The notes under the pieces: model-generated | What the model was told of the DNA's origin: nothing | Database searches by the model: none | The model's input: only the letters and a program-made list of their open reading frames with translations | Translations under genes and position numbers: made by a program | In this document: positions 803 through 62,185 of the stretch, in pieces | Layout of the letters: the number at the start of each line of letters is the position of its first letter | How positions within the stretch are numbered: the stretch's first letter is position 1 | Source: a virus | Lineage: Duplodnaviria; Caudoviricetes | DNA length: 64,000 nucleotides | IMG/VR virus record: IMGVR_UViG_3300029913_000001 | Direction: 5' to 3' (one strand)

Positions 803-1039
803 TCATTGCCCCAACCTAAAAATTTCGTCATTGGAAAGTTTTCGAACAGTCCGCAAAAATCGAAAAATCCTAAGGACATTGCCATCTTCAGACACATTAA
901 TGTAAACTATCGTTTCGGCTGGATCATATGGATCATGATAATCAATCTTACTCACAATTCCAATATTAATTGAATCGAGTAGACCCCACATTGTATCAAA
1001 TTCAACATGATCCCCGGTCTTAATTTTTACGGTTTGCAT
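803..1039 (-). CDS. Small SH3/KOW-like protein with C-terminal LIxRL-type tag
   Basis: KIKTGDHVEF at the N-terminus; ends DEIFRLGQ. Confidence 0.65.
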   Translation of the reverse strand: MQTVKIKTGDHVEFDTMWGLLDSINIGIVSKIDYHDPYDPAETIVYINVSEDGNVLRIFRFLRTVRKLSNDEIFRLGQ

Positions 1040-1040
1040 T

Positions 1041-1256
1041 CTATTCTGTCAAATTAACGTCGAGAATTGGAAATTTATCCTGCACCTTACCACAATCCAT
1101 GCAGAGATTAAATTCAAGATAATCGCCGCCGCCGATTCCTAAATTATCCGGAACATACCCATCATGCTCAAGCTCTCCAAAAGTAACAAAACATAAATCC
1201 GAACATTTTCCCGAAACCGTTAAAATACGATCACTACTGCACGAGTTGCAAATCAT
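1041..1256 (-). CDS. Small Cys-rich (zinc-ribbon-like) protein
   Basis: CNSC...CMDC pairs. Confidence 0.6.
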   Translation of the reverse strand: MICNSCSSDRILTVSGKCSDLCFVTFGELEHDGYVPDNLGIGGGDYLEFNLCMDCGKVQDKFPILDVNLTE

Positions 1257-1742
1257 TTAATATCTCCTAGTTGAAAATTTCGTTCGAATTGCGCCAATAA
1301 GATCATTAAGATTTTCATAAAGAGGAACATTGTATTTTTTGCAGACGATATCAATATTACCTTTACGATAGTACCCTTTTGGGCAGCATACTAAAACTTG
1401 CTGCGTTTTTGCCTGAAGGCCCAATTCCAATAAAGTAACAGGCGCCTTAGTTAATTTAGCCTGTTCTTCATCTGACCCAAATACATAAATGCACAAATTA
1501 GCTAAATCTTGCCCCGCTAATTCCCATTCAACCTGTTGCCGAAATCGATGATCCTCGATGCTTTGCACCCATGAAGAATCCCAATCATCACGCCTGGGAT
1601 TAAGAAAAATAACATTTAACTCGGTTAATGCATTGACGACTCGCTCTTGCCAATTTTCTGCTTTTCCTTGCTCGATCGCACCGCCAAGAAAAATGACTGG
1701 TCGATCGACGGTATAAGCATTCGGGGCCTTAACTTCAATCAT
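1257..1742 (-). CDS. Nucleoside 2-deoxyribosyltransferase-like protein
   Basis: Motifs IFLGGAI...NWQ, LNPRRDDW, QVEWEL, PVTLLELG, recognised from memory of the family. Confidence 0.8.
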   Translation of the reverse strand: MIEVKAPNAYTVDRPVIFLGGAIEQGKAENWQERVVNALTELNVIFLNPRRDDWDSSWVQSIEDHRFRQQVEWELAGQDLANLCIYVFGSDEEQAKLTKAPVTLLELGLQAKTQQVLVCCPKGYYRKGNIDIVCKKYNVPLYENLNDLIGAIRTKFSTRRY

Positions 1743-2309
1743 TTTTAATTCTAACCTTTAATTTCAACTAAATGCCAATTATATGCATCGTCGCCTGGGC
1801 GGTAACAATACTTATATTGGAAATTACAGTACTCTAGCCAATAAATTATTCCGGATATTGGACACCGACGGGGGAGATACGTAAATCTCTTAACATTTTT
1901 AATATCACCAATAAGAGGCAACGGCTTTGGCTTTGGATAAAATCTCATTTATTCTACCTTCAACTTCTAAAGTTGTTTAGCAAGTTTTAAAACTGCGGGA
2001 CTTATATTCTCGATGAGTTTCAAATATTCCGAATCGACCAAATCTTCTATGTACATACTAATGAAATTAAGCGAGGCCGCTTCGGAAAATGAAATGTTCG
2101 CTGTCTTACTCTTCGTCTTCCCATTCTTCATAATCGTTATCTGGGGTCGTCGCCTGCTTCGTGAACATCGGAAAGAATAAAATTATGCTTCCCACTAACG
2201 AGAGTGCAATACCGATGCGTGGATTAAAACCGAAAATTAGGCAAGCGATAACGATTATAATTCCGCCAAGTCTAACAAAATTATTAAATGATTTATCCGA
2301 AAGTCTCAT

Positions 2310-3731
2310 TTATACCTCCGCCAATTCTCGGATCTCATCCAACGTCTGGTGACGCAGCACAACGCCGTTTCGGAAAACAAGCTCGAGTTGATTACCATAT
2401 ACACCTTCACCATTATCCTGCACCGTACTGAATAACCCAGTATTCTCAGAATAAATTAGCGCTGGACGACCCTTGAAAGATGCCTTTGATGGATCGCCTT
2501 TCGGCGCCTTCCACACAGGAGTATCAATATTGTCGAATCGTACATTGCAGAACTTCATAGCAGACTTCATTGAATCGCGATTAATTCCCTTATGGAGTAG
2601 CCCACCGCCCATACCCACAACAATGTTTTCGACACTCCACCCGGCGTTCTTAACCGTCTCATACAATTTACGGATGGAAAAAATATCCATCCCATCGCCC
2701 CAAAGCAGGCCAACACATGGAGTCAGTACCTTGTATCCTTTACTATTAACAGAATAACCAAACCGATCTCCGAGAATTTCAAGCAATACAGGAACCTTAA
2801 CAGAAGGATCACCAGAATCTGGACGAGCAACAACTTTAGTTTTACCATGAAGAATTTGATCTCGGAAAGTACCACCTAAAATTTCACGAACAAAATATTC
2901 ATCATCGTAACTGTCGATCACGATACTAAGAACGGGCGCATCTTTATATGCTTCTAGAATTCGTGCAACGACATGTCGTTCACCTTCGGGGCCTTCAATA
3001 GTTTGCACAAAATGTTCGGTTGCCGGAACGCTAAATGCACTTACCCTATCTGCTCCGTAATATTGATGCAGCAGACTCATTCCAATAACGGTGTCTGTGC
3101 CCTTAAAATTCATAAGATGCGCGGCGCCGCCAATTGCAGCCTGATGGGGCCCTGAAACAGCACGGCCGCCAAAATCATGCAACATAAACGGTAAAGCAGC
3201 ATAGGAATCGGAGGTCAGTGAGAGATATTCCTTGGCTAGTTTCTTAACTTCGCGACTTTGGGTAGCAACAATACTCCCATACCAATTTCGCATTAGTCGA
3301 GTTTCACACCAACCCGGCAACCAGGCGCATTTTTCATCTGTGCTTTCAACGGTGAAGACGACATTGTTAATGCCATTATTGGCAATATTAAATGGGCGGC
3401 CCTCCTTGATTGCTCGAATTTCAATTGGCAATCGTCCATGATACCTATCCAGAATATACTGCCATTGTGCCTTAGGATAGGGAAAGCCGCCATAAAAATG
3501 AATCTGACTATCTGCATAAGCCTCATCAAGATTTTCCTGCGTAAAGAACTTGCCCTCGAATTCGGCCATTAGCTGATACTGCAATCCGAAAAATACTGCC
3601 TCGCTATAAATTCCACCGCGGTTGCAGTAGTAATTCATTGCCTCGGTTAGATTGCTGGGGAGAACCTGGGGATGAGTATTCTTGTAGCTATCGGTATCCA
3701 GCAGCGGATTAATTACTAGTGGGGTTGGCAT
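2310..3731 (-). CDS. nadV: Nicotinamide phosphoribosyltransferase (Nampt)
   Basis: TDSYK, HDFGGR, GTDT, PATEH, DSYD, RPDSGDP, WGDG and GMGGGL motifs; 473 aa. Confidence 0.93.
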   Translation of the reverse strand: MPTPLVINPLLDTDSYKNTHPQVLPSNLTEAMNYYCNRGGIYSEAVFFGLQYQLMAEFEGKFFTQENLDEAYADSQIHFYGGFPYPKAQWQYILDRYHGRLPIEIRAIKEGRPFNIANNGINNVVFTVESTDEKCAWLPGWCETRLMRNWYGSIVATQSREVKKLAKEYLSLTSDSYAALPFMLHDFGGRAVSGPHQAAIGGAAHLMNFKGTDTVIGMSLLHQYYGADRVSAFSVPATEHFVQTIEGPEGERHVVARILEAYKDAPVLSIVIDSYDDEYFVREILGGTFRDQILHGKTKVVARPDSGDPSVKVPVLLEILGDRFGYSVNSKGYKVLTPCVGLLWGDGMDIFSIRKLYETVKNAGWSVENIVVGMGGGLLHKGINRDSMKSAMKFCNVRFDNIDTPVWKAPKGDPSKASFKGRPALIYSENTGLFSTVQDNGEGVYGNQLELVFRNGVVLRHQTLDEIRELAEV

Positions 3732-3754
3732 TTTAATATTCCTTTCTTAATCTT

Positions 3755-3783
3755 ATTATATATTATTTTTGATAATATTGCAA
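3755..3783 (-). promoter_or_regulatory. Sigma70-type promoter for nadV
   Basis: TTGCAA-17 nt-TATAAT on the minus strand. Confidence 0.7.
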
Positions 3784-3786
3784 GAA

Positions 3787-5569
3787 TTATTTTGGCCATT
3801 TTGAAAAATCAAACGGTTCTTTCGGATTGGCCCAGTCATCGTCCGTTAATCCGTTTTCGGTATAATAACCGGCGAACGCAATTCGAAGATTTTGTACCAA
3901 TGCATCCGGATCGAAGTCATTTTCAGTTCCATCCATTGTTGCACATTTAACGGCGTATCGTCCCGCAGCTACGATTGCTCGATCAAATTGTTCTCGGCTT
4001 AAGGTAATTGTTCTCCCGGGTTCCGATTCGTTCCAAATACTAATATGAATTTCACCGTTGCCGCCCATACGAAACGGCATAGGCGGCGCATTGTACCCAG
4101 TATCTGATTTCTTGTATAACCAATGATCTTTGGGAAGATCCATGGACATTACAGCAAATCCCGAGCCGTCCCCTAAGTCTTGGACTTCGTTAATTTTTCC
4201 ATTGCAGTCTGTTGCGAGTTGTGTTAATGTATCCACGACGGCCATTTCACTCTCCAATTTTAATTTTATTGTTCCAGCCGGTGTACTAATTCTTTCTCAA
4301 TGAAATCTAATGCCCACAACCAGGCAAAATATTCGGCTTGGACTCCATTTTTATCCCATCGAGTATCGACCATACGCCGGTTGTCGGCATAAATAAATCC
4401 ATCCGAAAAATAAGCCTTTGGATAAGATTGCAACACGATATACTTATTTTTTTCTAATGCGGGAGTAAGCCACGAATTTAGAAAAGATTTATCAAATTTC
4501 ATTTATAGATTTCTTTCATACCGTAAGATAATTTTTCAGCAAGTGCTTTATTTTTATCGATAATTTTATTAATCTTCTCGAGTTTAGCGAGACGATCGAC
4601 TGTTAGCTTTTCAATGGCGGATGTTACACCATCCAATGAATCGGAATATCCGGCTGCATCTGCATTCTGAATTCTCCATCTCCACCCATCTCCGGTGTTG
4701 TCTGGCTCAATTATTACCTTTTCCCAAACAGATAAAAGATTTTTCATTGCGCACCCTTCTTTAATTTTTCAATACAAATTAGACGATATTCATTCGCGGT
4801 GGTTTCATTAACAAATCCTGCAATCCTTTCATCGTCTAGATAAATAGCATATTCTTTAAAGAATATGCTGTTAACATCATATTCTTCCCCAGCAACAACC
4901 CTAACTCGATCTTCCGGAGTTTTTTCGGTTTCTACGAATTTATTGTATATCTTTTGTGCGAAGCCTACGGGGAAGACATATTCCTGGTAGTAGTTTAAAA
5001 GTTCTTCATCGAGAATAATTTTAAAGCGAGTAGCCGCGGTCAACATCGCTGCGGTCATCGAGCGCACTGCTAAAGATTCGGTATCATCTCTAAAATTTTT
5101 GCTATCATTTGCAGCAGCGATCATATCTTTAACTAGGTCATGGCCCACAGCAGACAGCGTATTATCTGAATTTAAAATTCTTTTTAAATCATTAATTAGG
5201 TCTACAAACATATAAGAGTCATCATCTTGATAGCGATAAACCAAATCTTGCGCGGCATCAAATTCTTCTATAATATTCATGTTTCCTCTCGTATTACTCG
5301 ATATTAATTTTTCCAAATAAAGAATATTTTGTTATTTTGTGCTTTCTATACATTGGCGAGATCTTTTTCTGGATCATTTTTAATAGGTCACTTAATAAGA
5401 TGCAAATCACTCCAATAAGAATAACCGCTAGAAAAAATGCCCACCAAATCGGAAAAATAATAACGCCGAACCAATATTCTGCAATGGTTAAATCTAATAG
5501 ATTAGAACCATCCGATAATCCAAATATTGTCATAATTTTATAATGCCATGAATTTTTACGAATTTTCAT
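3787..5569 (-). CDS. Run of hypothetical ORFs (3787-4257, 4266-4502, 4499-4747, 4744-5316, 5294-5569)
   Basis: Tightly packed, co-oriented ORFs with overlapping start/stop codons. 4266-4502 ends ELVHRLEQ (tag family); 5294-5569 has a transmembrane stretch. Confidence 0.65.
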
Positions 5570-6031
5570 ATTATCCTTCCGTGTTCGTTTCCTTCCAACG
5601 CTGCTCCCAATTTTTGTCAACCTGTATTGCTGCGTCCTCTGGATGTCCGGGACGAATCTGTGCGCCGGGATGCCATTGTGGTAATTCGACACTGCCATCT
5701 AGGCGGGCCTTAGGAACATACTCAACCCCATCGATAACAACTTGTTTCATCGTTTCTCCTGATATAACAGTAACAACAGTTGAGTGAATTAACGATAATC
5801 TATCTTGCTAGTTTATCGAGTAATTTCTCATCGAAATATTCACGCCATTTACCAACTCGCCATTTACACGGCAAAATAACATTATAGATGTGATTCATAA
5901 TATATTCAGGTTTACTACAATCGATTACCTCTGCCACTCCGATGTGCATGATAACTTTTCCAAATCGCGTAACAATAATTTCGCTATTGTCATCGGAAAA
6001 ATCCCAGTCGTATTCATTTTCGATTGGCATT

Positions 6032-7021
6032 TTATACTTGCCCATATAGATGATTCTTTAACATTTTGAAAAGAATCTGATGTTCCTTTTCGAACATATC
6101 CTCTGTTACTGCTTCGATCGGGAAAAATCGTGTAGTACTAATATCGTCGCCGCCGGTAGTCTCGAGACTACCTACTTCGCCGAGAAAGAAAATGGTTTTA
6201 ATCGTTTCGGAACTATCTCTATATCGCCAATCGTCAATCTGGGTACTTCCAATATATTCTAATTTTCCGGGAGTGGTAAGCGTTTCTTCCATACTTTCCA
6301 TAGTAGCATCAGATTCATAGCTAACATTTTGCGGGCGTAGTTTGCCCATCGCATGACCACCGGGAAATCTATATCCCTTTTCATCACTCCGCTTCGCTAA
6401 CAACAGTTGAATATCATCTTCAACATTCAACGATACACGCTCTCCTGAAGCTACTCGGAAATCTGGATTCTTAATCTTACTACGATGAATAATTGCTACA
6501 TCAACGGTTGGAATAACTCGATCAAACGTGTTTCTTGTTGCGTAAATAACTCCAGCTCTGAATTCGGGACTATCCAATGCTTCGTTGGCCGCTACATTTC
6601 GAAGAGTGGTACCGGAAATTGTCTGATCTACCGGCATCGTCAATTCAACAACCTTACGACGGCCAGAATAAGATTTCAAGAAACTATCGCGACTTCCATA
6701 CAAAGTGGCCTTGCCGTACGGCACCCTCTCTGTAATTAGTCGATCAAGATCCTGGCTCCATAATTCATCTGTCTTCCGATTATGAATCGGATAAACTTCA
6801 TAATTAGGATATGCTGCATGAATCATTTTTCGCCTAGTATCAAAATCAAGCGGATCATTTTTTGTCGGTGCTATTCCAACCGGCAGGCAGCCTAGGAAAA
6901 CGATGACCCGTGGATGAATTCTACCTACTGCATCGAGTAATGCTCGATGACCCTCGTGCAATTCTGGTAATTGAAACCTAGCAACCAAAACACCATAATC
7001 GGGCTGTGTGATATTACTCAT
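6032..7021 (-). CDS. Bifunctional NMN adenylyltransferase / Nudix hydrolase (NadM-Nudix type)
   Basis: N-terminal ARFQ...HEGH (HxGH) nucleotidyltransferase motif, SGTTLR, PTVDVAI and a C-terminal Nudix-like fold with a degenerate box. Confidence 0.88.
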   Translation of the reverse strand: MSNITQPDYGVLVARFQLPELHEGHRALLDAVGRIHPRVIVFLGCLPVGIAPTKNDPLDFDTRRKMIHAAYPNYEVYPIHNRKTDELWSQDLDRLITERVPYGKATLYGSRDSFLKSYSGRRKVVELTMPVDQTISGTTLRNVAANEALDSPEFRAGVIYATRNTFDRVIPTVDVAIIHRSKIKNPDFRVASGERVSLNVEDDIQLLLAKRSDEKGYRFPGGHAMGKLRPQNVSYESDATMESMEETLTTPGKLEYIGSTQIDDWRYRDSSETIKTIFFLGEVGSLETTGGDDISTTRFFPIEAVTEDMFEKEHQILFKMLKNHLYGQV

Positions 7022-7307
7022 TGTTCTTCCTTTCACTGTCGGTTAAATAATTTTCATATTTTCCATTGTTAGCGTAATATGCGTCCCATGATTCTTTGGA
7101 AATTTGAGTGGTATATGAAGATCCACGTCGCTTTTCCGAAAGAAGTGATCGCCGCTTTTCCCAATAATTAGCACGTAGCACAATAGCAAAAATGAAAATA
7201 GTTAAAAAAGCCAAATACCAATAAAAATTACGATAAACGAAAAACAGTTGAACCGCCAACAGGCAAAATTCTACCGTTAGTACTGTCCAAATAAATTTAC
7301 GCATCAT
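7014..7307 (-). CDS. Small membrane protein
   Basis: Two hydrophobic segments at the N-terminus. Confidence 0.65.
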   Translation of the reverse strand: MMRKFIWTVLTVEFCLLAVQLFFVYRNFYWYLAFLTIFIFAIVLRANYWEKRRSLLSEKRRGSSYTTQISKESWDAYYANNGKYENYLTDSERKNNE

Positions 7308-7746
7308 TTTCTCTTTCTTGCAACTCTTTTCGAATTGCCATCAAAATTTTTCCAAGATGATTTTTACCGACACCCTTGCAAACGCCCCAAAATGTATCAC
7401 CCCAGGTATTACCCTCGATAAGAATTGCATCTTCGGTCGCCAACAATTTTTGTCTTAATTCCGAATTCGTAAACTTTTGGCAAAGCAAATCAACCATTAC
7501 ATTAAGTTTAACGTCATTCCAATCGGATCGGAGGGTAGTCAGCCGCCCTAATCTTTTTGCTTTACCGGGAGTAGTTGCGTCCCGTATTTCGATCCGTTGA
7601 TCTAAATTAAAGGTTTTGCTCGCCTGATATGCGCGTTCAACATCTCGGTACCGAAAATTATCATCTTCGAGCCGAATGCCGCCGGGTACATAAGAAAAAT
7701 TACTTAAAAACTCAAACTCCCCGACAAATTTATCAATAATTTTCAT
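7297..7746 (-). CDS. NADAR (YbiA-like) family protein
   Basis: FLSNF, VERAYQASK, AKRLGR, LLATEDAILIEGN.WGD.FWG and NHLGKILM motifs. Confidence 0.92.
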   Translation of the reverse strand: MKIIDKFVGEFEFLSNFSYVPGGIRLEDDNFRYRDVERAYQASKTFNLDQRIEIRDATTPGKAKRLGRLTTLRSDWNDVKLNVMVDLLCQKFTNSELRQKLLATEDAILIEGNTWGDTFWGVCKGVGKNHLGKILMAIRKELQERENDA

Positions 7747-9863: not shown

Positions 9864-12352
9864 TCAATGCGATAATTTCCAAACAAGTGCCTCGTTGTAC
9901 GATATTTTAAAAAGTTTGATTCCCGCAACGTTATATACGTAAGTATTTCCGGAACGAACAGTCATTTTAAACATCAGATTGCCGCTGTTATCAACCTCAA
10001 CTATTCTTCCAAGAAATTCTTCCCCAGTGTAGCTCCTATAAATTGCCCAATCACCCAACTCAAAAATATGTTCGTCGCGTTTAGCCATATCATTTTTCCA
10101 AGTAATGAATTAAAATTTTATCTATGGTTGCTTTTTCAACCCACCGCAGGCTTACAGAAGTCCTATAAGATACTCCTAAAATTTCGGCTGTTTCAAAAAT
10201 AATAGACTCCGAGAATCCTAAATCATCACCGAGGTATATTCCCAAATATCGGTTACCCGACATTCCGGTATAAAAAATAGCGTCCCCCGGATTTAATTCA
10301 TCACCTGTCTTAGTGTAAATCATTTCGATAACCGATGAAGTAAAATCTTATCGGTGGGAACAATCACACATTTTTCGGTAACCATAATTCCGCCGTAGGC
10401 CCCACCCTCTTCAGTAACGAGTACTATTTTCTTTGGACGAATTTCAGATATTTGTAACAATATAAGAGTTTGCCCCTTATAGCCAGGTGTAAGAATCCAA
10501 TCTCCTACTTTAAATTCATCACCGAAAAAATCTACCATTATTGCTCCAATTTATAAATCTAATATCCCGAAATAACACCAGATTGCACCTCTAGATACCA
10601 TGCACCAAAATCGTGATCTTTATTAAGAATATCTTGTTCAGCTTCTGCGTCAAATAATACCTTAGCCTTACTAAGGTATTCATACATCTTCTTCTCATCG
10701 CATTCTTGAAGCATATCAAAATTATGCTGAAATGCTAGGTAATGTCCGATAAGATTCTTTTGCAAGACGAGCTTAATTTCATGCTCGGTTAATTCACGGT
10801 ATTTTAGAACGCGCTTAAGAGTTTCGAGTAACGGATAAAAAGTATTGCCAAAGTCATTATCGCCTAATACAATTGCAATTGTTCTCATATTATCTCCGTC
10901 GTTATTATTCCTCTAGCCGATAAATTAGTGCTTCCGCATCAGTTAATTTTGTTATTATTTCATCCCGTAAACTACACCAGCCAAGGTATTCTGGAAATCG
11001 AATAAGAAAACAATCACGCCGGTAATCGACTACCGAAATAACTATTCCTATTTCGCTAGGCAGTTCATTGAGTCCTTGAACCCGAACATAATCACCAATG
11101 TTAAACATTATCTTCAAAATGGAGCCGGTCAGTCAACCTCTTAATACCGGCGGTATATCTAATTACATCTGCAGAATATTTTGCATAATTATCAGCTGCA
11201 ATACTCCACTCAATATCCGTCAAATTTTCGCCTTTGATACATGCAGAATAATAGGCTTTTTGCATTTCGACATATTTTAATTTCTGTGCCAACGTAGCAA
11301 TTGCTCTCATATTATCTCCGTCGTTATTGCCCGAGTCGCCAAATCAATGCTTCATCATCGGTTAATTTTCTTAATGCTTCCACCACTATTATGTCATAAT
11401 AATCAAAACTATAATAAATTATAGCATACATTCGTCCGCCATATTCATCCTGCCGAAAACGATTTATTTGGCCAACCGTAGTATTTTTAAAAGTATCGAT
11501 AAATTCTACAAAATCATTAACCCGAAGTTCAATTCCATTTTTATCACATATCATATCGATAACTGGTAGATGAAAAGATCATCCGGTGTTAACTTAACAA
11601 GCGACTGAGAATACCAGATATAATTTTCATCCTTAATCTCATATAAATTACAATAGGCAGCGCCAGTGCCATTATCTTTTCCAATAAATTTAACTTTTTT
11701 CGGTAAAATACCAAAAATCGAAACTACCGAAAAGACATAAACCCAGTCGCCTACCGAAAATTTAACGCCATTTCGATCGTGCATTACAACCCCAGTCGAT
11801 AAATTAGCATTTCATCCGGCGAGACCTTCATCAGATCCAAAGGTGACCAGGGAAACTTCGATCCATTTTCATTCTCTAAGATTGCAAGTTCAGGAAAAAA
11901 TTCATTTGCTGCAGGTTTAAAAGAGACAACCTTTCTTGGTAAAAATTGATGCTGCCGTGAAAACGAAACAGAGCATACCCAATCACCAATTTTCAGTGGC
12001 GTATTTAACCGATCGCAAAAAGTAGTTGTAATCTTATTTGTCATTGACTCAACTTCCAAATTAAAAATTCAGCGGGTGAACACCCATGGAACTTCCGACC
12101 GTATTTCATGTTGCAATACATTTCGTACCCGGAAAGAGGAGCATTCGTCCAAGACGAGGAAATATCTTTTCTATTAATCCTCTTTTCGACTCCGATATAA
12201 CTGCCATCAACTAATTCACGAGAGAGCTCGTACGCAATGGCCTTGGCTCGTCGACGAGTACGTGTGAACCCTCGATAATCCAGCCAACGGCCATCTTTGT
12301 CGCACTCAAAAATACTCCACTTTCCGATAATTGCCCAGCTAGGCCGTCTCAT
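9864..12352 (-). CDS. Array of ten small ORFs; seven SH3/KOW-like paralogues plus 12041-12352 carry a shared C-terminal tag
   Basis: 9864, 10090, 10320, 10905, 11324, 11551 and 11784 share D..G..[LF]..GD[WYF]V-like N-termini and LIxRL-like ends. 12041 has only the tag. 10559 and 11101 are unrelated. Confidence 0.75.
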
Positions 12353-19151: not shown

Positions 19152-20741
19152 TTAAGAACACTTACTTGATCCGCAACTCGCGCAATGATAGCATCCGGAT
19201 TCATATATTAACTGGCCGCCGCATTGGGTACATTTTTCGCCATCAACTTTTTCTCCATCTCGAATATATCCAGCAAGTAATTTTTTAACATGAAAAAGAA
19301 AACTAGCAAAAGTTACACCTTCAACTTTATCGAGCTCTGCAACAACATTCTTAATTCGAACGCCATGCCGTAATAATAGTCCGATAGTTCTAGCAATTTT
19401 TACACTGTTTGAATCATTGCCGCACTTTCGTACTGTTGATTCTATATATTGTGCGGGAATACCTTTTACTCGAGCTAAATTAATTAATCGATCGACCACA
19501 TCGTTCGTAGTCACCGATTTTTCTATGGCATTAGTTTGCACAAAAATTGAAATTGGTGCCTTATTGGCATTCAACCCGATTGTACAATACCATTTTCTTG
19601 ATCCGCCGGATTCATGATCTCTAAGAACTTTCATTTCGGCCGTGGTCGTATCCGGCAATTTAACATCATCTAGAATAATTTCTTCATCAGAACTTTCATC
19701 TTTTTGATCTACAGCCGAAAGAACTGAACTCATCGTTCCTGCGCGATATGTCGTAATTCCTTTTATATATCCTGTTTCAAAAGCATCAAGATAAATATTT
19801 TGAAATTTTTCAAACATATAATCACTGGGTAAATTGACAGTTTTACTACAGGCAGAGTCCGCGCACTTGCACCAACCCTTAAGGTCAGTAATATGCTCTT
19901 CAACAGATAATTGGGTGGTGGTAGCCGCCCAATCCGCAGTTGGGTCCCACTCGCCGATCTTTGAGAGATATCGAACCCCATAATCCTGGCATAACACTTC
20001 CTTTGTTAATCCTCGATTTTTATCAATTTTATAAACGGTACCATATTTATCTACGCCTCGTAAAATTTGCTCGTCGCCTTCTTGTGCAAATTTAAACATT
20101 TCCGTTTCAAAAAATTCACCTTGACTCCAAACCGGAGTAACTAATCGGATATGATCTGGCATATGTGAAACAATAACCGTTCGAGTATATTCTGGTAGGA
20201 AAGCGGGCTCAATCCCACCCGTAACAACCTGTGCTAAACAACCACTATTTCCATTCGGTTGATTCGAAAAAAGCGCCGAATTTCGTATACCATTCTTTTT
20301 CATACGATTTCGCAAGTTAACTGGTAAATCAATATTATCCCAGAAAGGACTTAATACATGATTATCTGGTTCGCATAATGGGAACATTCCCTTTTCATCG
20401 GCGAGATTTAATGAGGCTTCAACTCCGGCGTGAGTGAAAACTGTTAATAATTCATGCTGAATTTTAAGCGCCTCTTTTGATCCATATCGAATCTTCATCA
20501 TAATAAGAGAACTACCCCAGCCCATTACGCCGCATCCTATCCGCCGTTTATTTCTCATAGTACTTACATATTCGGGTAATGGTGCATCACTATACTCATT
20601 TACATTATCTAGAAAACGAACAAGGTAGCCTACATATTTTTTAACTCTATCTAAATCAAACCCAATTCTATCTTTATTTACAAATTGGGTAAGATTCATT
20701 GTGCCTAAACAGCAAACACCCCCGGGTGCTAACATTTGCTC
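19152..20741 (-). CDS. nrdJ: Class II (B12-dependent) ribonucleotide reductase, exon 2
   Basis: Begins EQMLAPGGVCCLG; contains RRIGCGVMG, GIEP, SKTVNLP, GITTYRAG and a C-terminal zinc ribbon CTQCG...GCYHCASCG. Confidence 0.88.
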   Translation of the reverse strand, partial: EQMLAPGGVCCLGTMNLTQFVNKDRIGFDLDRVKKYVGYLVRFLDNVNEYSDAPLPEYVSTMRNKRRIGCGVMGWGSSLIMMKIRYGSKEALKIQHELLTVFTHAGVEASLNLADEKGMFPLCEPDNHVLSPFWDNIDLPVNLRNRMKKNGIRNSALFSNQPNGNSGCLAQVVTGGIEPAFLPEYTRTVIVSHMPDHIRLVTPVWSQGEFFETEMFKFAQEGDEQILRGVDKYGTVYKIDKNRGLTKEVLCQDYGVRYLSKIGEWDPTADWAATTTQLSVEEHITDLKGWCKCADSACSKTVNLPSDYMFEKFQNIYLDAFETGYIKGITTYRAGTMSSVLSAVDQKDESSDEEIILDDVKLPDTTTAEMKVLRDHESGGSRKWYCTIGLNANKAPISIFVQTNAIEKSVTTNDVVDRLINLARVKGIPAQYIESTVRKCGNDSNSVKIARTIGLLLRHGVRIKNVVAELDKVEGVTFASFLFHVKKLLAGYIRDGEKVDGEKCTQCGGQLIYESGCYHCASCGSSKCS

Positions 20742-20985
20742 CATCGGTTATTTCAACGCGCTTTATCGTTGATCTCCTCATTTCTAAGGAGTGTCGGACT
20801 ATATCTTCATACTATGTATGTCGGGCGCTCGTGGTAGGATTATTGATTTAGTTTCTCACCTACTAGTCTCTACGCTTTTCAGAATACTGTTATACTATTT
20901 CTTCTGACTTAGCTCGGTATTTCCAGTTTAAAGGATTCACCGAATTCACCCAATGATTATACTGAGGCCAGCTTTACGCAATTTG
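20742..20985 (-). ncRNA. Group I self-splicing intron (244 nt, no ORF) in nrdJ
   Basis: The 5' exon ends in U (GGT) and the intron ends in G. P1 pairs GGU/CA with UGGCC through a U.G wobble at the splice site. Core elements GGGUGAAUUCGGUGAA (P), AAUACCGAGC (Q), GCGUAGAGACUA (R) and GAAGAUAUAGUCC (S) are present, with P7 GACUA/UAGUC. Removal restores TNPCG|EQML in frame. Confidence 0.93.
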
Positions 20986-22005
20986 ACCACAGGGATTCGT
21001 TGTCGCAATTTTCTCTAAATAATTAAGTTGATTAAATTTATTTGAACGATCTAAAAATAAAATTCCTGGTTCGTTTCTATTATAGGTTGATTGAGTAATC
21101 AAATTCCATAACCATTCAACTTTAACCGTTTGATAAATTTTAATTGGATATCCTTTTGATACCCACGATGTTAGATCCCCAAACCATTCCTTTTTATATT
21201 GCGGATGAGTAGTTTCTGGATAAACCAAATCCCAAGTAATTGCATTAATTTCATTTTGGGGTGCCCCATCACGTTTTAATTGAGATAAATTTAATACTTT
21301 TTCCATAAATTTATCGGTGCAATTGACACTCATATTAAATTTGGATAATCTGCCGGGAGTTTGTTTTGCTGTAATAAATTCAATAATGTCCGGATTCCAA
21401 ACAGACATACACAACATCTGGGCGCCTTTTCGGATTTTACCTTTTGCTTTTTTATTTAATGATTTTTTACCAGAGCCTGAAGTAATAATTTCTGAACTGC
21501 GGTCAAAGAGCTCGAAAAATTTAACAGCCCCAGGCGTTTCCACCCCTATACCATTGATAAATGTGCCGCGTGGTCGAATAAAATCTGCGACGGCTCCTGC
21601 TCCCCCTTCAGACTTAAGAGTGAATGATTGATATTTAAGATACTCTAAAATGCCTTCTAAACTATCGGCATCATATTTAGGATTCGGGAGAACAAAGCAA
21701 TTAATTAAGGTTGTTCCCTTAAATTCTGTTCCGGCATTTGCCAAAATTCTACCACCGGGAACTACTTTGAATCCTGTAAGCATATCATAAAAATTGTATG
21801 CCCATTTAACTCGTAATTCTTCTGTTGCCTCCACGCTTGCAATTGCTTTTGCAACACGCCAAAAATTATCATTAATATCGGCGTCTTTATAATCTTTATA
21901 AGTAGCAGACCAGACCTCTTCACTAAAGCTATCTTCAAATTTCGTTGTTTGTTCTGGTCTGGGGAGATAAGAAAGTCCTTTCATTGTTTCTTGTGTTGTG
22001 TTCAA
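20986..22005 (-). CDS. nrdJ: Class II ribonucleotide reductase, exon 1
   Basis: VPGGRILANAG, TLINCF, EGGAG, RKGAQM, KFNMSV, NEPGILFLDR and ATTNPCG. The start may be the TTG at 22005 or an ATG seven codons later. Confidence 0.88.
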
Positions 22006-33627: not shown

Positions 33628-33859
33628 TCACTCCTCAAATTTCTTAATTAACTCGTTTTGAATATTTTCATATGCCAATTTCCATATATGCCTACTGTAT
33701 TCATTCTTGTATACATATGTGTACTCACTCGGCTATCAAACGTCCGTCATACTTCGATTTATGAGGCGTAATCCATACATAGACACCAAAAACTGTATCT
33801 GTTTGCCATAGTTTCGCATATGGATAAATTGTTTTAACAAGCGTTTTATAATTTATCAT
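33628..33859 (-). pseudogene. Frameshifted tandem paralogue of 33856-34131
   Basis: MINYKTLVKTIYPYAK...RLI, then a frame shift near 33730 giving PSEYTY...WKLAYENIQNELIKKFEE*. Confidence 0.65.
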
Positions 33860-34131
33860 TCTGACAATTTCCAGATTAGTTCTCGTTGAATTTTATCCCA
33901 CGCCAACTTCCATAAATTTGGACGATCCTTTGGTGACATATAATCGTATCTAATAGGCGCTGTTATAAAACGAGATCGATGCCAATCGATTGATAACAAA
34001 GTATCGCACCAACCGTTAGAATAATCCCATGCAGAATAAATCTTGGCATCGGGGTAAACATTTTTCACTAATGTTTCATAATTAATTGAAGAAATTATAT
34101 TTACCATTAGTTTCGATCTCGACCATAGCAT
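33856..34131 (-). CDS. Small 'YPDA...W..AW..I' family protein with C-terminal tag
   Basis: VKNVYPDAK...WKLAWDKIQRELIWKLSE. Confidence 0.7.
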   Translation of the reverse strand: MLWSRSKLMVNIISSINYETLVKNVYPDAKIYSAWDYSNGWCDTLLSIDWHRSRFITAPIRYDYMSPKDRPNLWKLAWDKIQRELIWKLSE

Positions 34132-51909: not shown

Positions 51910-52527
51910 ATGAAAATTACCGAATTATATCGACCAAAACTCGGAAAAAATTTAGAAGCCCCGGCATTTGATTATTTTAAAAAGAGCCACAAAACATCAG
52001 ACTATGACTATGAGAAGCGACAAGACCTTCAACAAGAGTTGAGAGATAAATTAAAATCCCTCGGGTGGAAACATTTAAATTCCGGAGTCTATAGTTCAGT
52101 GTTTTCAAATCCAACAAAATCTTTTGTACTTAAAATTAATAAGCGCCCAGATCCCGGCTATCAACGATACGTTAATATTGTTAAATCTCATCGAAATAAA
52201 CATTTTCCAATTATAAGCGATATTAAAAAGATGGAAATAGCCGGTAATATCTATTATGTTTATTTAATTGAAAAATTAATATCCATTCCAGCTAAAATGG
52301 CATTTAATTATGAACGCTGGTTCGACTCTATTATAACAAAACCCGGTATTCCATTGGAAAAATTATTTTGGAATAATGTTCCAATTATATTTAAAAAACA
52401 ACCAGGATTATTGAAAGCACTTCAAATAGTAGAACAATCGGCTATCTCGGAAAGCATTGACCTACACAGTAAAAACATGATGAAAAGGGCCGATGGCACT
52501 ATTATTATTACTGATCCATATGTTTAG
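51910..52527 (+). CDS. Protein-kinase-like protein (T7 gp0.7-like), paralogue 1
   Basis: SGVYSSVF glycine-loop-like segment, VLKI, IEKL, DLHSKN catalytic loop, ITDP. Confidence 0.8.
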   Translation: MKITELYRPKLGKNLEAPAFDYFKKSHKTSDYDYEKRQDLQQELRDKLKSLGWKHLNSGVYSSVFSNPTKSFVLKINKRPDPGYQRYVNIVKSHRNKHFPIISDIKKMEIAGNIYYVYLIEKLISIPAKMAFNYERWFDSIITKPGIPLEKLFWNNVPIIFKKQPGLLKALQIVEQSAISESIDLHSKNMMKRADGTIIITDPYV

Positions 52528-53088: not shown

Positions 53089-53709
53089 ATGCTTATTACT
53101 GAATTCGCGCCAAATAAATTACGCCCCGCTATTGTCGCTCCAACCTACGATTATTTTACTTCGATTCCGCGGTGGAATGATGTAGATTATAATACCAAAA
53201 AAGCGGACGCCAACAAAAAGTTACGAGACTCATTGAAAAGAAATGGCTGGACATATCTCGACGAAGGCTATTATAGTATGGTTTTTGCCAATCCTAAAAA
53301 GTCATTTGTTCTAAAAATTAACAGCAAACCCGATACCGGGTATGAAAGATATGTTTCTGTTATTAAAAAACATAAAAATAAGCATTTTCCAATAATTAGC
53401 GATATGAAAATTGTGAAGATTGACGATCAAAATTATTACATTTATCTCATTGAAAAATTAACTAAACTACCAGCTCTTCAGGCTTTGAGCAATTCAGATT
53501 TTTTCGCTATAATAATACGGCGGGCATATAGCTCATTAGACGTTATATTTAACCACGATATACCTACAATTTTTAAAACCGATCCATCTTTAGTTAGAGC
53601 CCTACGTATTGTAGGTCAGTGTGCAGATGATTGCGGCCTTGATATGCACAGCGGAAATATCATGCAACGAACAAATGGGACTATTGTTATTACCGATCCA
53701 TATTCTTAA
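53089..53709 (+). CDS. Protein-kinase-like protein (T7 gp0.7-like), paralogue 2
   Basis: EGYYSMVF, VLKI, IEKL, DMHSGNIM, ITDP; TATAAATA at 53073-53080. Confidence 0.82.
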   Translation: MLITEFAPNKLRPAIVAPTYDYFTSIPRWNDVDYNTKKADANKKLRDSLKRNGWTYLDEGYYSMVFANPKKSFVLKINSKPDTGYERYVSVIKKHKNKHFPIISDMKIVKIDDQNYYIYLIEKLTKLPALQALSNSDFFAIIIRRAYSSLDVIFNHDIPTIFKTDPSLVRALRIVGQCADDCGLDMHSGNIMQRTNGTIVITDPYS

Positions 53710-56079: not shown

Positions 56080-56139
56080 GTACTACTATGTCAAGACGTT
56101 ATACATAGAGGTGGGCGGCTCACAAAATATTAAGAAAGT

Positions 56140-56170
56140 AAAATGCCAGTGATTAACTCACTGGCATTTT
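56140..56170. terminator. Intrinsic terminator
   Basis: AAAATGCCAGTGA / TCACTGGCATTTT. Confidence 0.8.
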
Positions 56171-56173
56171 TAA

Positions 56174-56965: not shown

Positions 56966-57049
56966 ACCGCTCCTTTAGCATTCCGAATAAAATGCTTATA
57001 CAAACTTTAATTCGATTTTTATTTTGACACACTCTATTTAGCTTTTAGT

Positions 57050-59430
57050 TTACTCCGACAGTCTAAAAATTAAAACGTCATTATTTAAAATATCAATATC
57101 AGTTGAAATTTTCCGATAATTAATATTCCGATCTTTTTTGCTCATATTGCAGCATGTTCGAAAAAACTTATCGGCACTTTTTTTGTGTGTCATAAATCTT
57201 TCAAAAAGAATATGCTTCCTCCACAGAGAAATTTTCACGCCGGTTTCCCAATAATAGGTGGGGCAAATTAGCCGAATGCTTTTTTCTAGGTCATTAACTT
57301 TACTACGCAATTCCTGGAGGTGTTCTTTTTTTACCATTGCATCCTTTCAATTAATATTTTGCTATACAGGTCGGCAATAATTGAATTAATATATTCGATA
57401 TCGTATGGGCTGATAAGATTGAACAATCTGCATTTCGAAATTACGCATGTAATTTTATATAAATCGGTATTAATAAATAGCACGCCATCCGCAATTTCGA
57501 GTAAATTATGTAAGATTGCCGGCCAGTCTGATAAGTTGGTAATTGTATAATTTGTCATGTTGATAATTTTGCAACGAGAAATTCAGAAAGTTCGATAATC
57601 ATAACTTCCTTTGCAATTCGAATAAGTAGCAGCATCGCTATATCCTTATTCTGTAAATCCGGCAATAGTCTTCAGCCGAATTCGATCGCCCAATGAACGA
57701 TTATCGAATTGCTTTACAGAAGTACGAGGGGGTGAGCCAAACATTCCATTGTCAACGCAAATACAATCACCGATGTTATCCTTCAACGCTTGCACGGCTT
57801 CTTCCTTGGTCCATAAATACAAATCGTTAACCGGATTTCTTACTTCTCGTGCCAGCCCCAATGAATTAAGGAAGGAGGCATGTTCTTCATCATTCTTCCA
57901 ATCAATATTTTCACCATGCCGATACTTCCAGACATTTCCGCGCCGAACAAGAGTTAGTTGCAATTCTTCTGCATGATTAATTCCCGAAGTCCAACTATTT
58001 GGCTCGTTTGTGAGACTATACGTAGGCATGGGTGTTACCCCGTCTGCGCAAAATTGACCGATATAATCGTAATGAACCTGGGCAATAATAGCTTCATTGT
58101 TGGGATAGTCAACTGATGCAATAATATCCGGGGAAGTTACAAAATCTCCCTCAATGAAAGCGGTCATGGGAAGATCGCTTAATCGCTTCTTAACATATTG
58201 CAGCCGACCTTTAGTATCACGCATGGATTTGTCGCGACGTTTGGCTTCGGCGGCATCGAGCATTTCAGCTCTTCCGGTATATTCGCAAATTTCCTCACAA
58301 TTTTTTCGAAAATATGCCCACGATGTATTTTCATACATTCCAGGCTCAACGCCATAAAAGTTTGCCCAGCCGTAAGCAATTTCAGAAAATCTGAGAAATG
58401 TAGCGATGGTGCCATCAGGATAGGGATTATATCCCCATTCACGATTTTCCTGCGGCACGTTAAGAACAACCATATCTCCGACTTGTAAAATTTCGCCTAG
58501 CATTCTATTTCCTTTTCAATTCGAATATGTAAAATATTAGCGTCCGATACATCGGTATGCACTATCGCATATAACCCGCAATGAGAAAAAACTCGTACAA
58601 ATCCAAACAACGCTTTTCTTTTAGATATCCGCTTCCAGTATCGTTCTTGAAAAACAAAACCATTAGCAACCCAGTCTACGTGACCGCCCATTAGCTCGCA
58701 AGCTAGTCGATTAACCTCATCTGGTTCACTCCTACAGGTATCGACAATAATTCTCTTAATTTCGTTCGAAGTCATTACTTCATCCCCATTGCTAGAAAAA
58801 CTTTGAGAGAACGACGATATGCCTTTTCGTATTTCGCCTGCCAAATCGATTTATCCCAATGATACACTTCTCCTGAATAAAGGTGGTCAAAAATGTTAGC
58901 AACAAACGCCGCATATTCGGTTGCCGCCTTTTTTGCGGATACGTATGGGCCAATCGTACACAAATGCCCCGGTTCGTTAGTTCGATAATGATAAGATCGC
59001 AAAGCAAATCTTACAGAAAGTGCAGAATGCATTTTTGCCATTACTTCACCAGTCCATTCCGAACCTGTTCAGCGGTGAACTTAAAACGGCGGCCAGTAGA
59101 ACTAACGGCACTAACAGGATACTTACGCCGAGAAGATTTCAATCCAGCAATAGTAAACATCTTGCCCAGCGACATAAACGTCTTTCCCAACCCATCCTTT
59201 GGCAAGTTGAACATATATGCGAGCGACTGATATTCACGCGCTTCCGGTGAATCTACAACCGAGGAGGACCCGGCAGTTACGATAGTAGCAATCGATTTCG
59301 GATGAACGATCAACTTTGCAAAACGTGCTTCGGTTAACGTGAACCGACAATTGCCCAACGAAATATTAACCCCGTGCTTTGCGGCAACAGCAACAAGGGC
59401 AGCATCAATATCACGCCGAAGAGTTTGCAC
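57050..59430 (-). CDS. Run of accessory hypothetical ORFs (57050, 57331, 57646, 58497, 58775, 59041)
   Basis: Co-oriented ORFs. 57050 and 57331 carry the C-terminal tag. Confidence 0.65.
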
Positions 59431-59743
59431 ATCGTACCTTGAAAAAGAGTTCATTTTGAAACCTTTCTGCTGCTTCTGCAGCAATTACCGTGTTACCCAA
59501 TCAACATAATCAGTATAGCAAACTACCGATTAAATGTCAAGCTCGATCAGTGCAATATGACCAGGATTTTCGATTTGTTGAATATCTTGCTCGGCCAATT
59601 CTCATTTCGTGCTCTAATCTCAACATTGCAAGTTCGGAGCCAAAAGCATACACCACGCCCCCGATAATATTGACTTCGATCGGCTCTTTTGCAAGTGGTT
59701 CCCAGGAGTCTTTTACTTTGGCAAGCGTCATATCTGATCTCCT

Positions 59744-59782
59744 CACTGAAATAATTATAGCAAATACCGGTACCGAATGCAA
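59744..59782 (-). promoter_or_regulatory. Early promoter cassette copy 7
   Basis: TTGCAT-17-TATAAT plus the exact 21-mer. Confidence 0.85.
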
Positions 59783-60048
59783 CCGAAAAGTTTACCAGGC
59801 CATATACGCCCTGGCTTCTTCATCAGTAATAATCATATCGCAATCCACATCCATATATGCGTGGTTTCCTGTTCTGGGCTGGTACATATATTGCAATCGT
59901 TTTCCAGAGCGTGAAATGAATGGGGTTTCGGTACCACCGCAAGCAGGATACCAATTGCCTTGTTCCGGAGACTTCATATCAATGACCATATAAAAAGTAT
60001 AGCGCACTTCGATACCGTTTGCAACCGTTATTTTTCGGATTGCAGGTT

Positions 60049-60246
60049 GTTGAAAACAAAGGCCCGATTTCACGAATATGGCGCCGTATGGCCCTTTAAG
60101 GGGTCTGGGCATGGCTAGGTACTGCTAAAATAGCAGGGGCGCATTAGGGCGATTTAAGTCCTTTGTTTTCAAGGGCAAGATTTTTTGGTATTTTTCTTTG
60201 TTTTCGGTTGCATTTGGTACCGGTATTTGCTATAATTATTTCAGTG
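60049..60246. repeat. ~200-bp element (inverted homologue of 32017-32213) including promoter cassette copy 8 (+ strand, 60208-60246)
   Basis: TTGCAT-17-TATAAT, the exact 21-mer at 60226-60246 and TTGAAAACAAAGGACTTA at 60155-60172 (minus strand). Confidence 0.85.
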
Positions 60247-60264
60247 AGAGGAAAGAAGGCGTAT

Positions 60265-62123
60265 ATGAGCAATTCGAGAATTGACCCAATGAGTCGTGAA
60301 ATTTTAACAAATCCCAATTTTGATTTTTCCCAGGTTACCTGGGAAAATATTGTTGAGATGACCTCTTTCTGGCGGTGCCGATTTGCGAAACCCTCTCGTG
60401 CTTGCAGAGCCTGGGTAGTTATGATACGGTCGAAATGTCCAACCTTATATAATCGGCTCGGTGGCGCCTTGCTAGACGGCATCACTATTCAACAACGAGA
60501 AGATTACAATAAATATTTTTCTCATCTATGGAGAAAGAAATTCTACTCAACGCATAGCAAGGACCAAGTACCCGTTCTCGAAGATTTCGATGAAGTCGAA
60601 GCCGAAAAGCAATATGGAATTTGGATAATTCAGGAGGTTAACTAAATGAATAATGGAAAATGCGGCTATGTATGTTTTTATGGAAGCAAGCGAATTGAAA
60701 TCTATGCCAATTCAACGTACGAAGCGCAAAAACTTGCCGCCGAGCAATTGAAAGTAAAGCCCAAGTTCGCTTATAAGATCAGCGTTAATCTTTGCGAACG
60801 GGCCGATGGCAGTGAAGTAATTCATACCACTAGTTAAGAAAGGAATAGAAATGCCTGACGATTTTCTCAATGGAATGAAAAATTTTGTTAACGGCTGGTG
60901 TGAGCGTGAAGCTCGAATTCGGCGTGCTAATGAAGGTCGGCGGCGATGTGTACATGAAATTGGCTGGATGCAGAATAAAATTTCTGAACTAGAAAAGAAA
61001 CTCGTTAATCGACCTTCAACTATCAAAGAAATTAATAATTTAAAACATCAGATTCGAGAGCATGAGGTTAAACTCGCTTTCGATCCCTATCTCAACCCCG
61101 ACTGGAAATGCGATGAAAATTAGTGACGTACGGAAAATTTATCCAGATGCGATTGCCGTTCACTATTCTTTTTGGCGAAATAGTAATTTTGCAATTTGTG
61201 CCGGCATTCCAAATTTCGAAAAATATCTTCGTGACGTATTTATATTTTCCTCTCGAGACTATAGTGTATATAAAGGCATGCTTCGATTATCTGAATGGTC
61301 TGAGAACGCCGATAGCGCATGGCAGTCTGCATTCGAACGAATTGACCGAGAATTAATTAATAGGTTATCGGAATGATAGAACGCTCTTCATCCGAAAAAG
61401 TAAACGCCGACTTCTGGAATGTCAGCAACCAAGAAGAGTATCTGAAAATACGAGGCTATCTTTTAGAGAAAAGTTTTCTAATTTACTCATTAGACAATGC
61501 GGATCCGAGATTTAAACTCTTTAGAAATAAATTTAACCGGCTCGACAATATGTTTGATTGCGGTATTTTCTTCACCAATAGAACAAAATTTAATACAAAT
61601 CGAACCTTCTCAAAAAAAGAACTCGACAAAGCAAATCGTATTTTACAATCAATTCGAGATCTTTTATTAATCATACGTATAGAACAATAATGCGCATTGA
61701 AAATAAAAAAGAATACTATGATAAAATCCGGCCATATTTATTCGGTCTCTATACCTGCGATAGTGTCGCCTCCTTAGATCTCGGACGGCTATGCGATTTT
61801 ATTCAATTTATCGATTATAATGTTGATAATAATCAAATGAAAAAAGCAAATAGCAGGCTACAAGAAATGTTAAATTTTCTTTTAATTATCAAATTATCGA
61901 GGTAATAATGAAAAAACGTGAAATAAAATTCCTTGCTTGCGAAAAATTATTAGGTAAAATGGATCGAATCTTAGAAAATATTATTGTTGATTCAGCTAGA
62001 AATCATCCTAGAGCAGTCTATTTAAATACCCGAGCACTTCATCGTTATGCTACGGAATTACAGCAGAGGTTTCCAAATGCTACCCGACTCGACCTTGAAT
62101 TAATTAATAAACTTTCGAGCTAA
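60265..62123 (+). CDS. Plus-strand island of small early ORFs (60265, 60646, 60851, ~61108, 61373, 61690, 61908)
   Basis: Co-oriented and coupled ORFs downstream of promoter copy 8. The last four end in the LIx[RK]L-type tag. Confidence 0.7.
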
Positions 62124-62185
62124 AATATGCAACTAAAAAATTACAAGAAATGTTAAACCTGTTATTAATACTTAAATTAGAACGA

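Follow-up and report, generated by a model that had tools for sequence, protein, structure and literature searches.

Why should small proteins with dissimilar bodies, encoded by one and the same phage, stop on nearly the same seven residues? The question is raised by a 64,000-nucleotide stretch of viral DNA (IMG/VR record IMGVR_UViG_3300029913_000001; Duplodnaviria, Caudoviricetes), referred to here as the window, in which a first-pass annotation had described a shared C-terminal tag, [DE]-x(1-3)-L-I-x-[RK]-L-[SGE]-x-stop, on about 18 small proteins between positions 803 and 62,185. That annotation tentatively viewed the proteins as a modular library of effectors of unrelated folds, each bearing an address for one hub, a sorting signal or a degron. 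The analysis presented here confirms that the C-terminal motif is real and strongly non-random. In the largest family of carriers, it is predicted to be the closing helix of a small barrel and not an appended label. The reading that we favour, with somewhat less than even confidence, is that this integral end-helix also presents a common contact surface and that new genes have arisen on retained tails.

Enrichment of the C-terminal motif

All 18 C-termini listed in the first-pass annotation are present at the corresponding open reading frames (ORFs), the coordinate given for plus-strand genes having been the start. The background set was a simple non-overlapping ORF call of 122 proteins. A loose pattern, [LIVMF][LIVMF].[RKQY][LIM][SGEQ].$, matches the C-terminus of 18 of these 122 proteins, against 0.06 expected, and is found internally at 9 of ~18,900 positions. 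A strict pattern, L[LIVF].[RK]L[SGE]., matches 13 C-termini and 0 internal positions. Because the cases had initially been chosen by eye, a scoring matrix was trained on nine tails of a single family alone (family A, below) and then applied to all other sequence. Seven C-termini outside family A score 10-15.5 bits with this matrix, whereas the maximum among 18,116 internal non-A windows is 8.7 bits. The initial 50 kb of the T4 phage genome, rich in small early genes, served as a control, and 0 of its 92 ORFs fit even a looser pattern. Strong enrichment at C-termini is supported by both the count in the window and the T4 control.

Moreover, a 19th carrier was found that was absent from the earlier list, a 36-aa ORF at 57555-57665 (minus strand) with the end FLVAKLST. 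The distance of the motif to the stop codon is fixed in 19 of the 19 window carriers, and none of the larger enzymes and structural proteins of the window has the motif.

These carriers are not independent cases, nine of the 18 listed being members of one paralogous family. The first-pass annotation had itself stated that its proposal would fall if all the bodies were one homologous fold with the tag as an integral core helix. Paralogy explains 12 of the 19 carriers, which goes part of the way to that outcome. As for the unrelated folds, the claim stands at the level of sequence. The bodies divide into a predicted Tudor/SH3-like barrel family (A), a YPDA/AW family (B) and orphans without detectable homology, and no sequence similarity is detectable among the bodies of the three sets; a confident fold model is available for family A alone.

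Family A and its closing helix

Nine carriers, all on the minus strand, belong to family A. E-values refer to a hidden Markov model (HMM) built only from relatives outside the window.

803-1039, minus strand: family A member ending DEIFRLGQ; whole protein E 1.5e-7, body alone E 5.7e-5
9864-10088, minus strand: family A member ending EALVWKLSH; first gene downstream of the tandem array; body alone E 2.5e-10
10090-10323, minus strand: family A member ending KILIHYLEK; body alone E 1.2e-4
10320-10538, minus strand: family A member ending KILLHRLSK; overlap of its stop with the following start codon (ATGA)
10905-11117, minus strand: family A member ending EALIYRLEE; public calls begin at ATG and give 67 aa
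11324-11554, minus strand: family A member ending EALIWRLGQ; the one modelled
11551-11784, minus strand: family A member ending DLFIYQLSI
11784-12059, minus strand: family A member ending EMLIYRLGL; public call of 86 aa
13341-13595, minus strand: family A member ending DALLIQLSY

The nine proteins start with M-x-D-x-x-G-x-x-L-K-x-G-D-W-V and end with K-h-[ST]-x-[DE]-E-x-L-I-x-R-L. Searching 1.84 billion proteins with a profile of the family gave 78 matches, ~50 of them being relatives of 65-100 aa aligned end-to-end, with tails such as EEAMIYLLEN, EEAMLWKLENV and EEAMIWKLSQ. The ortholog of the 10320-10538 protein in a related phage is 62% identical and ends in MVKKLEQ. The HMM from non-window relatives recovers all nine window members, with E-values of 1e-13 to 1e-4 for the bodies alone, and the same HMM matches none of the bodies of the other carriers (E above 0.1). 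When single proteins of family A or B served as queries, word-based homolog searches gave back nothing but the query.

The AlphaFold2 (AF2) model of the 11324-11554 protein, obtained from a 59-row alignment, has a predicted local distance difference test score (pLDDT) of 95.7 and contains four or five strands within residues 15-57. The tail corresponds to a helix at residues 66-75, placed directly after the last strand with a pLDDT above 90. A Foldseek comparison of this model gives Tudor, chromo-barrel, CarD-RID and 'Hva1 TUDOR' barrels at template modelling (TM) scores of 0.6-0.71, and some of the chromo-barrel matches cover 74-77 columns, which is nearly the whole model including the helix. 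Judged from this model, the family A body would be a Tudor/SH3-like five-stranded barrel, and its tail is predicted to be an integral secondary-structure element, joined without a linker. The notion of a detachable tag does not survive this comparison, given that the modelled helix abuts the last strand and has been inherited across ~50 metagenomic relatives.

In Pfam scans of the 59 family A members at E 0.01, no family is matched by more than one member, and three families match one member each. Among PHROGs, phrog_2251 is matched by 14 of the 59 members and three more entries by others, all four being of unknown function. A DUF7205 label carried by two relatives is precomputed, was not reproduced in the Pfam scans and was discarded.

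Within the array, a two-gene cassette formed by a family A gene and the small gene following it is duplicated (10559-11117 and 11101-11554, minus strand), and the spacers after both cassette family A genes have CGACGGAGATAATATGAGA in common.

Family B, a second family with the same ending

Three further carriers and one truncated copy belong to family B, with E-values from the family B model.

4266-4502, minus strand: family B member ('YPKA...AW') ending KELVHRLEQ; E 4e-10
33725-33859, minus strand: truncated family B fragment of 44 aa, with no tail; E 8e-4, over model positions 11-37 only
33856-34131, minus strand: family B member ending RELIWKLSE; public call of 83 aa; E 2e-17
61062-61376, plus strand: family B member ending RELINRLSE; public call of 87 aa; E 2e-17

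Family B is a ~70-aa protein of the form MTDKEFV-x-S-x-YPDA ... AW-x-x-A, and the trio of the window (4266, 33856 and 61062) has in common the 'YPDA' start and an 'AW-x-x-A-x-x-x-I' helix. The start of the fragment at 33725-33859 overlaps the stop of the preceding gene. Neither Pfam nor PHROG holds a match to family B, a homolog search with a four-row family B alignment returned its own rows only, and the Atlas gave no usable match for a family B member. AF2 of the 33856-34131 protein, from four sequences, reached a pLDDT of 47.7, with a helix at residues 73-90 (pLDDT ~70) that has the motif at its end. According to this low-confidence model, the family B tail would be the end of an 18-residue helix. 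A two-copy complex prediction for family B scored 0.18, the mark being 0.42, and gives no answer either way.

Orphan carriers and relics

The seven remaining carriers, called orphans here, form at least five sequence groups, and no homolog of them was detected in ~700 kb of collected related phage DNA. They are given below with two relics and a weak variant of the ending.

12041-12352, minus strand: orphan bordering the family A array; 103 aa, with cap and tail of the A type, SPAEFLIWKLSQ
57050-57337, minus strand: orphan of 95 aa ending DVLIFRLSE; no public gene call
57331-57558, minus strand: orphan of 75 aa ending KILIERMQW, the weakest match; no public gene call
57555-57665, minus strand: extra orphan carrier of 36 aa ending EFLVAKLST
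61373-61690, plus strand: first of the orphan pair C1, ending LLLIIRIEQ; weak similarity to 61690-61905 only
61690-61905, plus strand: second of the orphan pair C1, ending FLLIIKLSR
61908-62123, plus strand: orphan ending LELINKLSS
4499-4747, minus strand: relic with ALAEKLSY followed by 7 aa; 8.0 bits, the second-highest internal score
58497-58844, minus strand: relic with ILHIRIEK followed by 4 aa
5800-6045, minus strand: weak variant ending EKLLDKLAR

The 12041-12352 protein matches the family A model through its tail region only (E 0.003-0.006), its body alone giving an E of 2.3. In the 61908-62123 gene, the first 13 bases of the tail DNA are those of the tail of the family B gene at 61062-61376. 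The Atlas model of the 61690-61905 protein is of low confidence (pLDDT 0.52), with uL29 among its nearest structural matches. A frameshift origin of the orphans was considered and rejected: their six-frame translations match neither the A nor the B model in any other frame. For the weak variant at 5800-6045, a possible counterpart is an 84-aa protein of a related phage that ends in EKLVKKLEQ.

Expansion of both families and lineage-specific endings in related phages

The same DNA is found at 99.99-100% identity in many peat/bog metagenome assemblies, in contigs of up to 292,778 bp, and related contigs carry a T4 baseplate gene. Near-sequence and protein searches among deposited phages found no close relative of this phage or of family A, and the ligase encoded in the window is ~30% identical to jumbo-phage ligases.

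In related IMG/VR and metagenome contigs, families A and B are both massively expanded. A genome of 359,890 bp (CheckV completeness 90%; the 360-kb genome in what follows) has 35 six-frame family A sites, and ORF calls give 26-28 A genes and 46-47 B genes. Likewise, a 65-kb fragment has 19-21 family A copies, and fragments of 37-49 kb have 31-32 family B copies. Family B is common in peat contigs, where its typical end is ML[REK]KLES. The 360-kb genome also encodes 13 more carriers outside A and B, of up to 234 aa, with the motif one or two residues before the stop. For its proteins outside the two families, the near-terminal rate of the motif is 0.0103 vs 0.00027 elsewhere. By degree of conservation, the column of the tail leucine comes second in A and also in B, the neighbouring Glu and Lys also ranking high. 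Nearly all copies carry the motif one or two residues ahead of the stop codon; in the 360-kb genome, this distance is fixed for 32 of 38 copies of family B.

The endings have a lineage flavour as well. Family A tails of the window and of its syntenic relatives have L-I at positions -7/-6, and the family B and orphan tails of the window also have L-I; only in the window phage is Ser at -2 common to A, B and orphans. The 360-kb phage and its relatives have M-L with Glu in family A, family B and the extra carriers. A 52-kb contig, with a G+C content like that of the window, has family B tails of the form L-[IVL]-x-R-L-S. From lineage to lineage, the tail flavour shifts partly in step across families, which is a hint of some common constraint, and such flavours common to families weakly favour docking to one hub. 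In metagenome contigs, family B arrays almost never have a family A gene within 10 kb, so these contigs add no paired lineages to the comparison.

Two further observations come from the 360-kb genome. Its A and B members both tend to start with M-[TK]-D-K (for example, at 245.8-261 kb and 266-268 kb), such that both ends are alike across the families and the middles are different. Also, one family B member (L032:11241-11633, minus strand) runs ~50 acidic/basic residues past the motif.

Codon use in the tails

According to the first-pass annotation, codon use varies across copies and selection acts on the peptide. Codons for the conserved tail residues do differ among carriers, and the claim holds between A and B, whose codons are randomised, but not for the orphans, whose codon sharing is above chance. 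Given the amino acids, 162 identical codons are counted between families, against 103-116 in simulations with four codon-usage backgrounds (P 0.0005-0.005). The excess is present only in pairs that involve an orphan (A-orphan, P 0.011; B-orphan, P 0.0075; orphan-orphan, P 0.007), whereas A-B tail codon identity is at chance in the window (P 0.14) and in the 360-kb genome (P 0.72). For individual codons, TCG encodes the tail Ser in 7 of 10 cases, compared with a background of 18-22% (P about 0.0004-0.0015), and TTA-ATT is also over-represented in the tails. These data suggest that the A-B tail resemblance is old and maintained on the peptide. On the other hand, since the orphan tails share codons with other families, they look recently inherited or recombined and not like products of pure peptide-level convergence.

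An integral end-helix as a putative common contact surface

The reading favoured above can be set out as follows. The tail would be the last helix of small single-domain proteins, with ~8-10 residues, an N-cap [ST]-x-[DE]-[DE] and a core h-h-x-[KR]-L-[ESG], and it would finish one or two residues short of the C-terminus. This helix would be built into two very large multigene families belonging to a clade of T4-related peat jumbo phages. The orphans would most likely have arisen, or been rebuilt, when the 3' end of a resident gene, including the junction at which its stop overlaps the next start, was retained or exchanged by recombination. Finally, one face of the helix and the nearby free C-terminus would together form the contact surface for one shared, hypothetical partner. 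A common contact surface is proposed because the same seven final residues are held on two unrelated bodies despite scrambled codons, and because the flavours partly change together; from this we infer a shared partner. The birth of genes by tail retention is suggested by the codons that the orphan tails share with the other families. Pure paralogy would leave unexplained the A-B conservation after codon randomisation, the fact that no internal helix scores as high, and the endings of the orphans.

Several observations weigh against this proposal. The 127-kb relative breaks the pattern of flavours, with L-I...E in family A and [LM]-E-x-K-L-[SA] in family B, and the cross-family co-variation as a whole comes from two or three lineages and is imperfect. 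A body-only tree of family A is unresolved, and in an approximately unbiased (AU) test, a single clade for the window lineage is not rejected (p 0.37), so founder effects could account for the lineage flavour within each family. Some relatives lack the motif and in others 4-50 residues follow it, meaning that a strictly terminal position is not essential. The pLDDT of 47.7 for the family B model means that the unrelatedness of the A and B folds rests on sequence. Moreover, the residues common to both families, h-h-x-x-L, lie on one helical face, which is possibly just the buried core side. The three overlapping tail-bearing ORFs at 57050-57665 (minus strand; 95, 75 and 36 aa) are uncalled in a public contig of identical sequence, and may be either missed genes or decaying ones. 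Last, the shared partner is hypothetical.

The main rival is a purely structural and historical explanation, in which the tail is a closing amphipathic helix, inherited within the families and copied to the orphans by recombination or partial gene replacement, with no common partner; the A-B likeness would then be an old 3' module or convergence. We consider it unlikely, though with a substantial share of our confidence. It agrees with a helix that is integral in the family A model and part of a long helix in that of family B, with the paralogy of 12 of the 19 carriers, with orphan tails that share codons with other families, with conserved positions that fit a buried i, i+1, i+4 face, and with the departure of family B tails from family A tails in the 127-kb relative. 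However, amphipathic helices are ubiquitous, and yet no internal window equals the seven non-A C-termini. Nor would two bodies be expected to hold seven residues, including a charged residue and Glu/Ser near the terminus, after codon randomisation, and the tail leucine and the Glu following it are among the most conserved columns in A and B.

A strict address-peptide model, close to the original idea, would have a transferable short linear motif that docks unrelated effectors to one host or phage machine, or that sorts them. The constant distance to the stop, both in the window carriers and in most family B copies of the 360-kb genome, the presence of the motif on sequence-unrelated bodies and the lineage-specific flavour across families all speak for such a model. 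Nonetheless, there is no linker in the family A model, where the confidently placed helix directly follows the last strand, and the strict address label fails on this structural premise. Also, the motif is absent from every larger enzyme and structural protein in the window, and some family members lack it or extend past it. Taken together, this makes the model rather improbable. Nothing was found in favour of the sorting-signal and degron readings in particular.

An ssrA-like degron was rejected, the last two residues being polar and variable (SE, GQ, EQ, SK), unlike an exposed non-polar LAA-type end, and the segment being a folded helix in the model. A sliding-clamp tail was discarded as well. 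The consensus of such tails is QL[SD]LF, or [ST]LDFL[FY] in the T4 type, neither of which is matched, and no replication or repair enzyme of the window ends in the motif, the polymerase lying outside the window. A MinD/FtsA-type membrane helix would be basic and hydrophobic and free of acidic residues; here, the acidic cap [DE][DE] and the Glu after Leu in most relatives give a net negative charge, which led to the rejection of this reading.

A signal at the nucleotide level, such as a ribosome-binding site, translational coupling or a recombination site, with the peptide as a by-product and a degron or membrane helix as minor options, is very unlikely. Most carriers do have the next ORF immediately after them, either overlapping at ATGA or TAATG or only a few bases away, and the over-represented TCG and TTA-ATT codons would also suit such a signal. 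However, the codons for Leu, Arg/Lys and Ile vary, and A-B codon sharing is at chance in the 360-kb genome. No purine-rich run was found in the carriers with ATGA overlaps, and the commonest penultimate codon, TCG, is not purine-rich. A Shine-Dalgarno or coupling signal would call for conserved purines 5-10 bases ahead of the next start; with varied codons and no such run, the ribosome-binding explanation fails.

The least likely alternative is that the tail is a ligand of the family A barrels, the helix of each barrel being held in cis while B and orphan tails compete in trans, which would link these small proteins into a network. In its favour, the two families have undergone expansion in the same phage genomes, and Tudor/SH3-like barrels are peptide-binding modules. 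Against it, the A and B copies are unpaired in number or position, and no family A gene lies within 10 kb of the family B arrays in many contigs.

Genomic surroundings of the carriers

The window has ~38% G+C, with most genes on the minus strand, and encodes NAMPT, ribonucleotide reductase (RNR), an NAD-dependent ligase and a DnaB-type helicase plus many tiny ORFs. In one peat metatranscriptome run, coverage consists of three short pieces (58158-59296), all outside the tail-bearing genes. A scan of the array for sigma-70-type promoters gave 23 vs 16.4 in shuffles, a slight excess.

Around the family A array, the order dCMP deaminase, small-gene array, RlaP-like protein, NADAR, NUDIX and NAMPT is found in the window (2310-3731 and 6032-7746, minus strand) and at the syntenic loci L009-L012. 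This block looks like a set for NAD salvage and ADP-ribose handling placed beside the array in three related phages. In one of the related phages (L009, 4202-6833, minus strand), a MoxR-type AAA+ ATPase and a DUF2201 protein are immediately upstream of the small-gene array, and different genes occupy this site in another strain.

Elsewhere in the window, the RNR large subunit (19152-22005, minus strand) is encoded as two ORFs of 343 aa and 530 aa with a gap of ~230 bases between them, the second entering the barrel-domain profile at position 225; the interruption may reflect an intron, the remnant of an intein or a gene split in two. Also, two paralogous proteins of ~205 aa are encoded on the minority strand (51910-52527 and 53089-53709, plus strand) with a minus-strand gene between them, and their ends are nearly identical (…GTIIITDPYV and …GTIVITDPYS, respectively).

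Implications for the small genes of giant phages

Giant phages have hundreds of tiny genes of unknown function, and in the 360-kb genome, A and B amount to ~75 of ~700 ORFs in a deliberately generous greedy call. If the ending marks a common partner, one pull-down could give a cellular target to dozens of these dark-matter genes. If it marks descent only, the orphans would be a rare, datable case of phage genes built on retained 3' ends. Under either reading, A and B merit names and profiles, so that pipelines stop listing them as unrelated hypotheticals; no description of family A, family B or the cross-family motif was found in the literature.

A bolder version of the proposal, which we hold to be improbable, would treat h-h-x-[KR]-L-[ES]-x-COOH as a virus-wide interaction code. 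In that case, more than 70 small proteins of unrelated folds, over a tenth of the genes of one jumbo phage, would address one receptor, which could be the family A barrels, and new members would be minted by fusing new bodies to an existing tail. If true, such a code would be the bacterial-virus counterpart of the poxvirus ankyrin/PRANC system.

Comparison with known systems

Lineage-specific expansions of small domains are known in jumbo phages, an example being Bacillus phage G with its ~35 copies of a zinc ribbon (Iyer et al. 2021, PMC7824862). As with those zinc ribbons, the families described here comprise dozens of diverged copies of a tiny protein per giant phage genome, often in tandem and of unknown function. 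However, two unrelated families are co-expanded here (about 27 and 47 copies in one genome), and one C-terminal motif is common to them and to several orphans. Also, neither A nor B is named in Pfam.

The predicted family A fold resembles Tudor and chromo-barrel structures, including those of MSL3 (PDB code: 3m9q), MRG701 (PDB code: 5in1), 53BP1 (PDB code: 2g3r) and CarD (PDB code: 4xax), as well as AFDB entries labelled 'Hypervirulence associated protein TUDOR', at TM scores of 0.6-0.7. The identity in these comparisons is 12-24% and the Foldseek E-values are ~1e-2 to 1e-3, which corresponds to a match at the level of the fold and not to family membership.

Variable bodies joined to a shared C-terminal docking module are seen in poxvirus ankyrin proteins with their PRANC/F-box-like end, in the SspB-type ClpX-docking peptide and in the clamp-binding tails of T4 gp43, gp33 and gp55. 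The phage proteins described here are similar in that one short C-terminal element is found on different proteins of one virus; docking to a hub is a feature of those systems. On the other hand, the elements of those systems are stand-alone modules or flexible tails whose receptors are known, whereas the motif here would be an integral helix of tiny folds, and its sequence matches none of those motifs.

With regard to T4 itself, the N-terminal capsid-targeting sequence is likewise a short terminal peptide on otherwise different proteins of one T4-type phage. In the present case, however, the peptide is at the opposite terminus and belongs to another class of genes, tiny proteins in arrays among nucleotide-metabolism genes, with no processing site seen. 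A further parallel is offered by the hyperplastic regions of T4-type phages, in which, as Arbiol and co-workers are said to have described in 2010, small early genes are shuffled by way of conserved intergenic cassettes of a promoter and a stem-loop. The arrays of the window resemble these sets of small, fast-evolving early-region ORFs with exchange at their boundaries, and the codon sharing of the orphans would fit such a process. Unlike the intergenic regulatory cassettes, however, the shared element here is coding and kept as a peptide, the sharing of tail DNA between A and B being at the level of chance.

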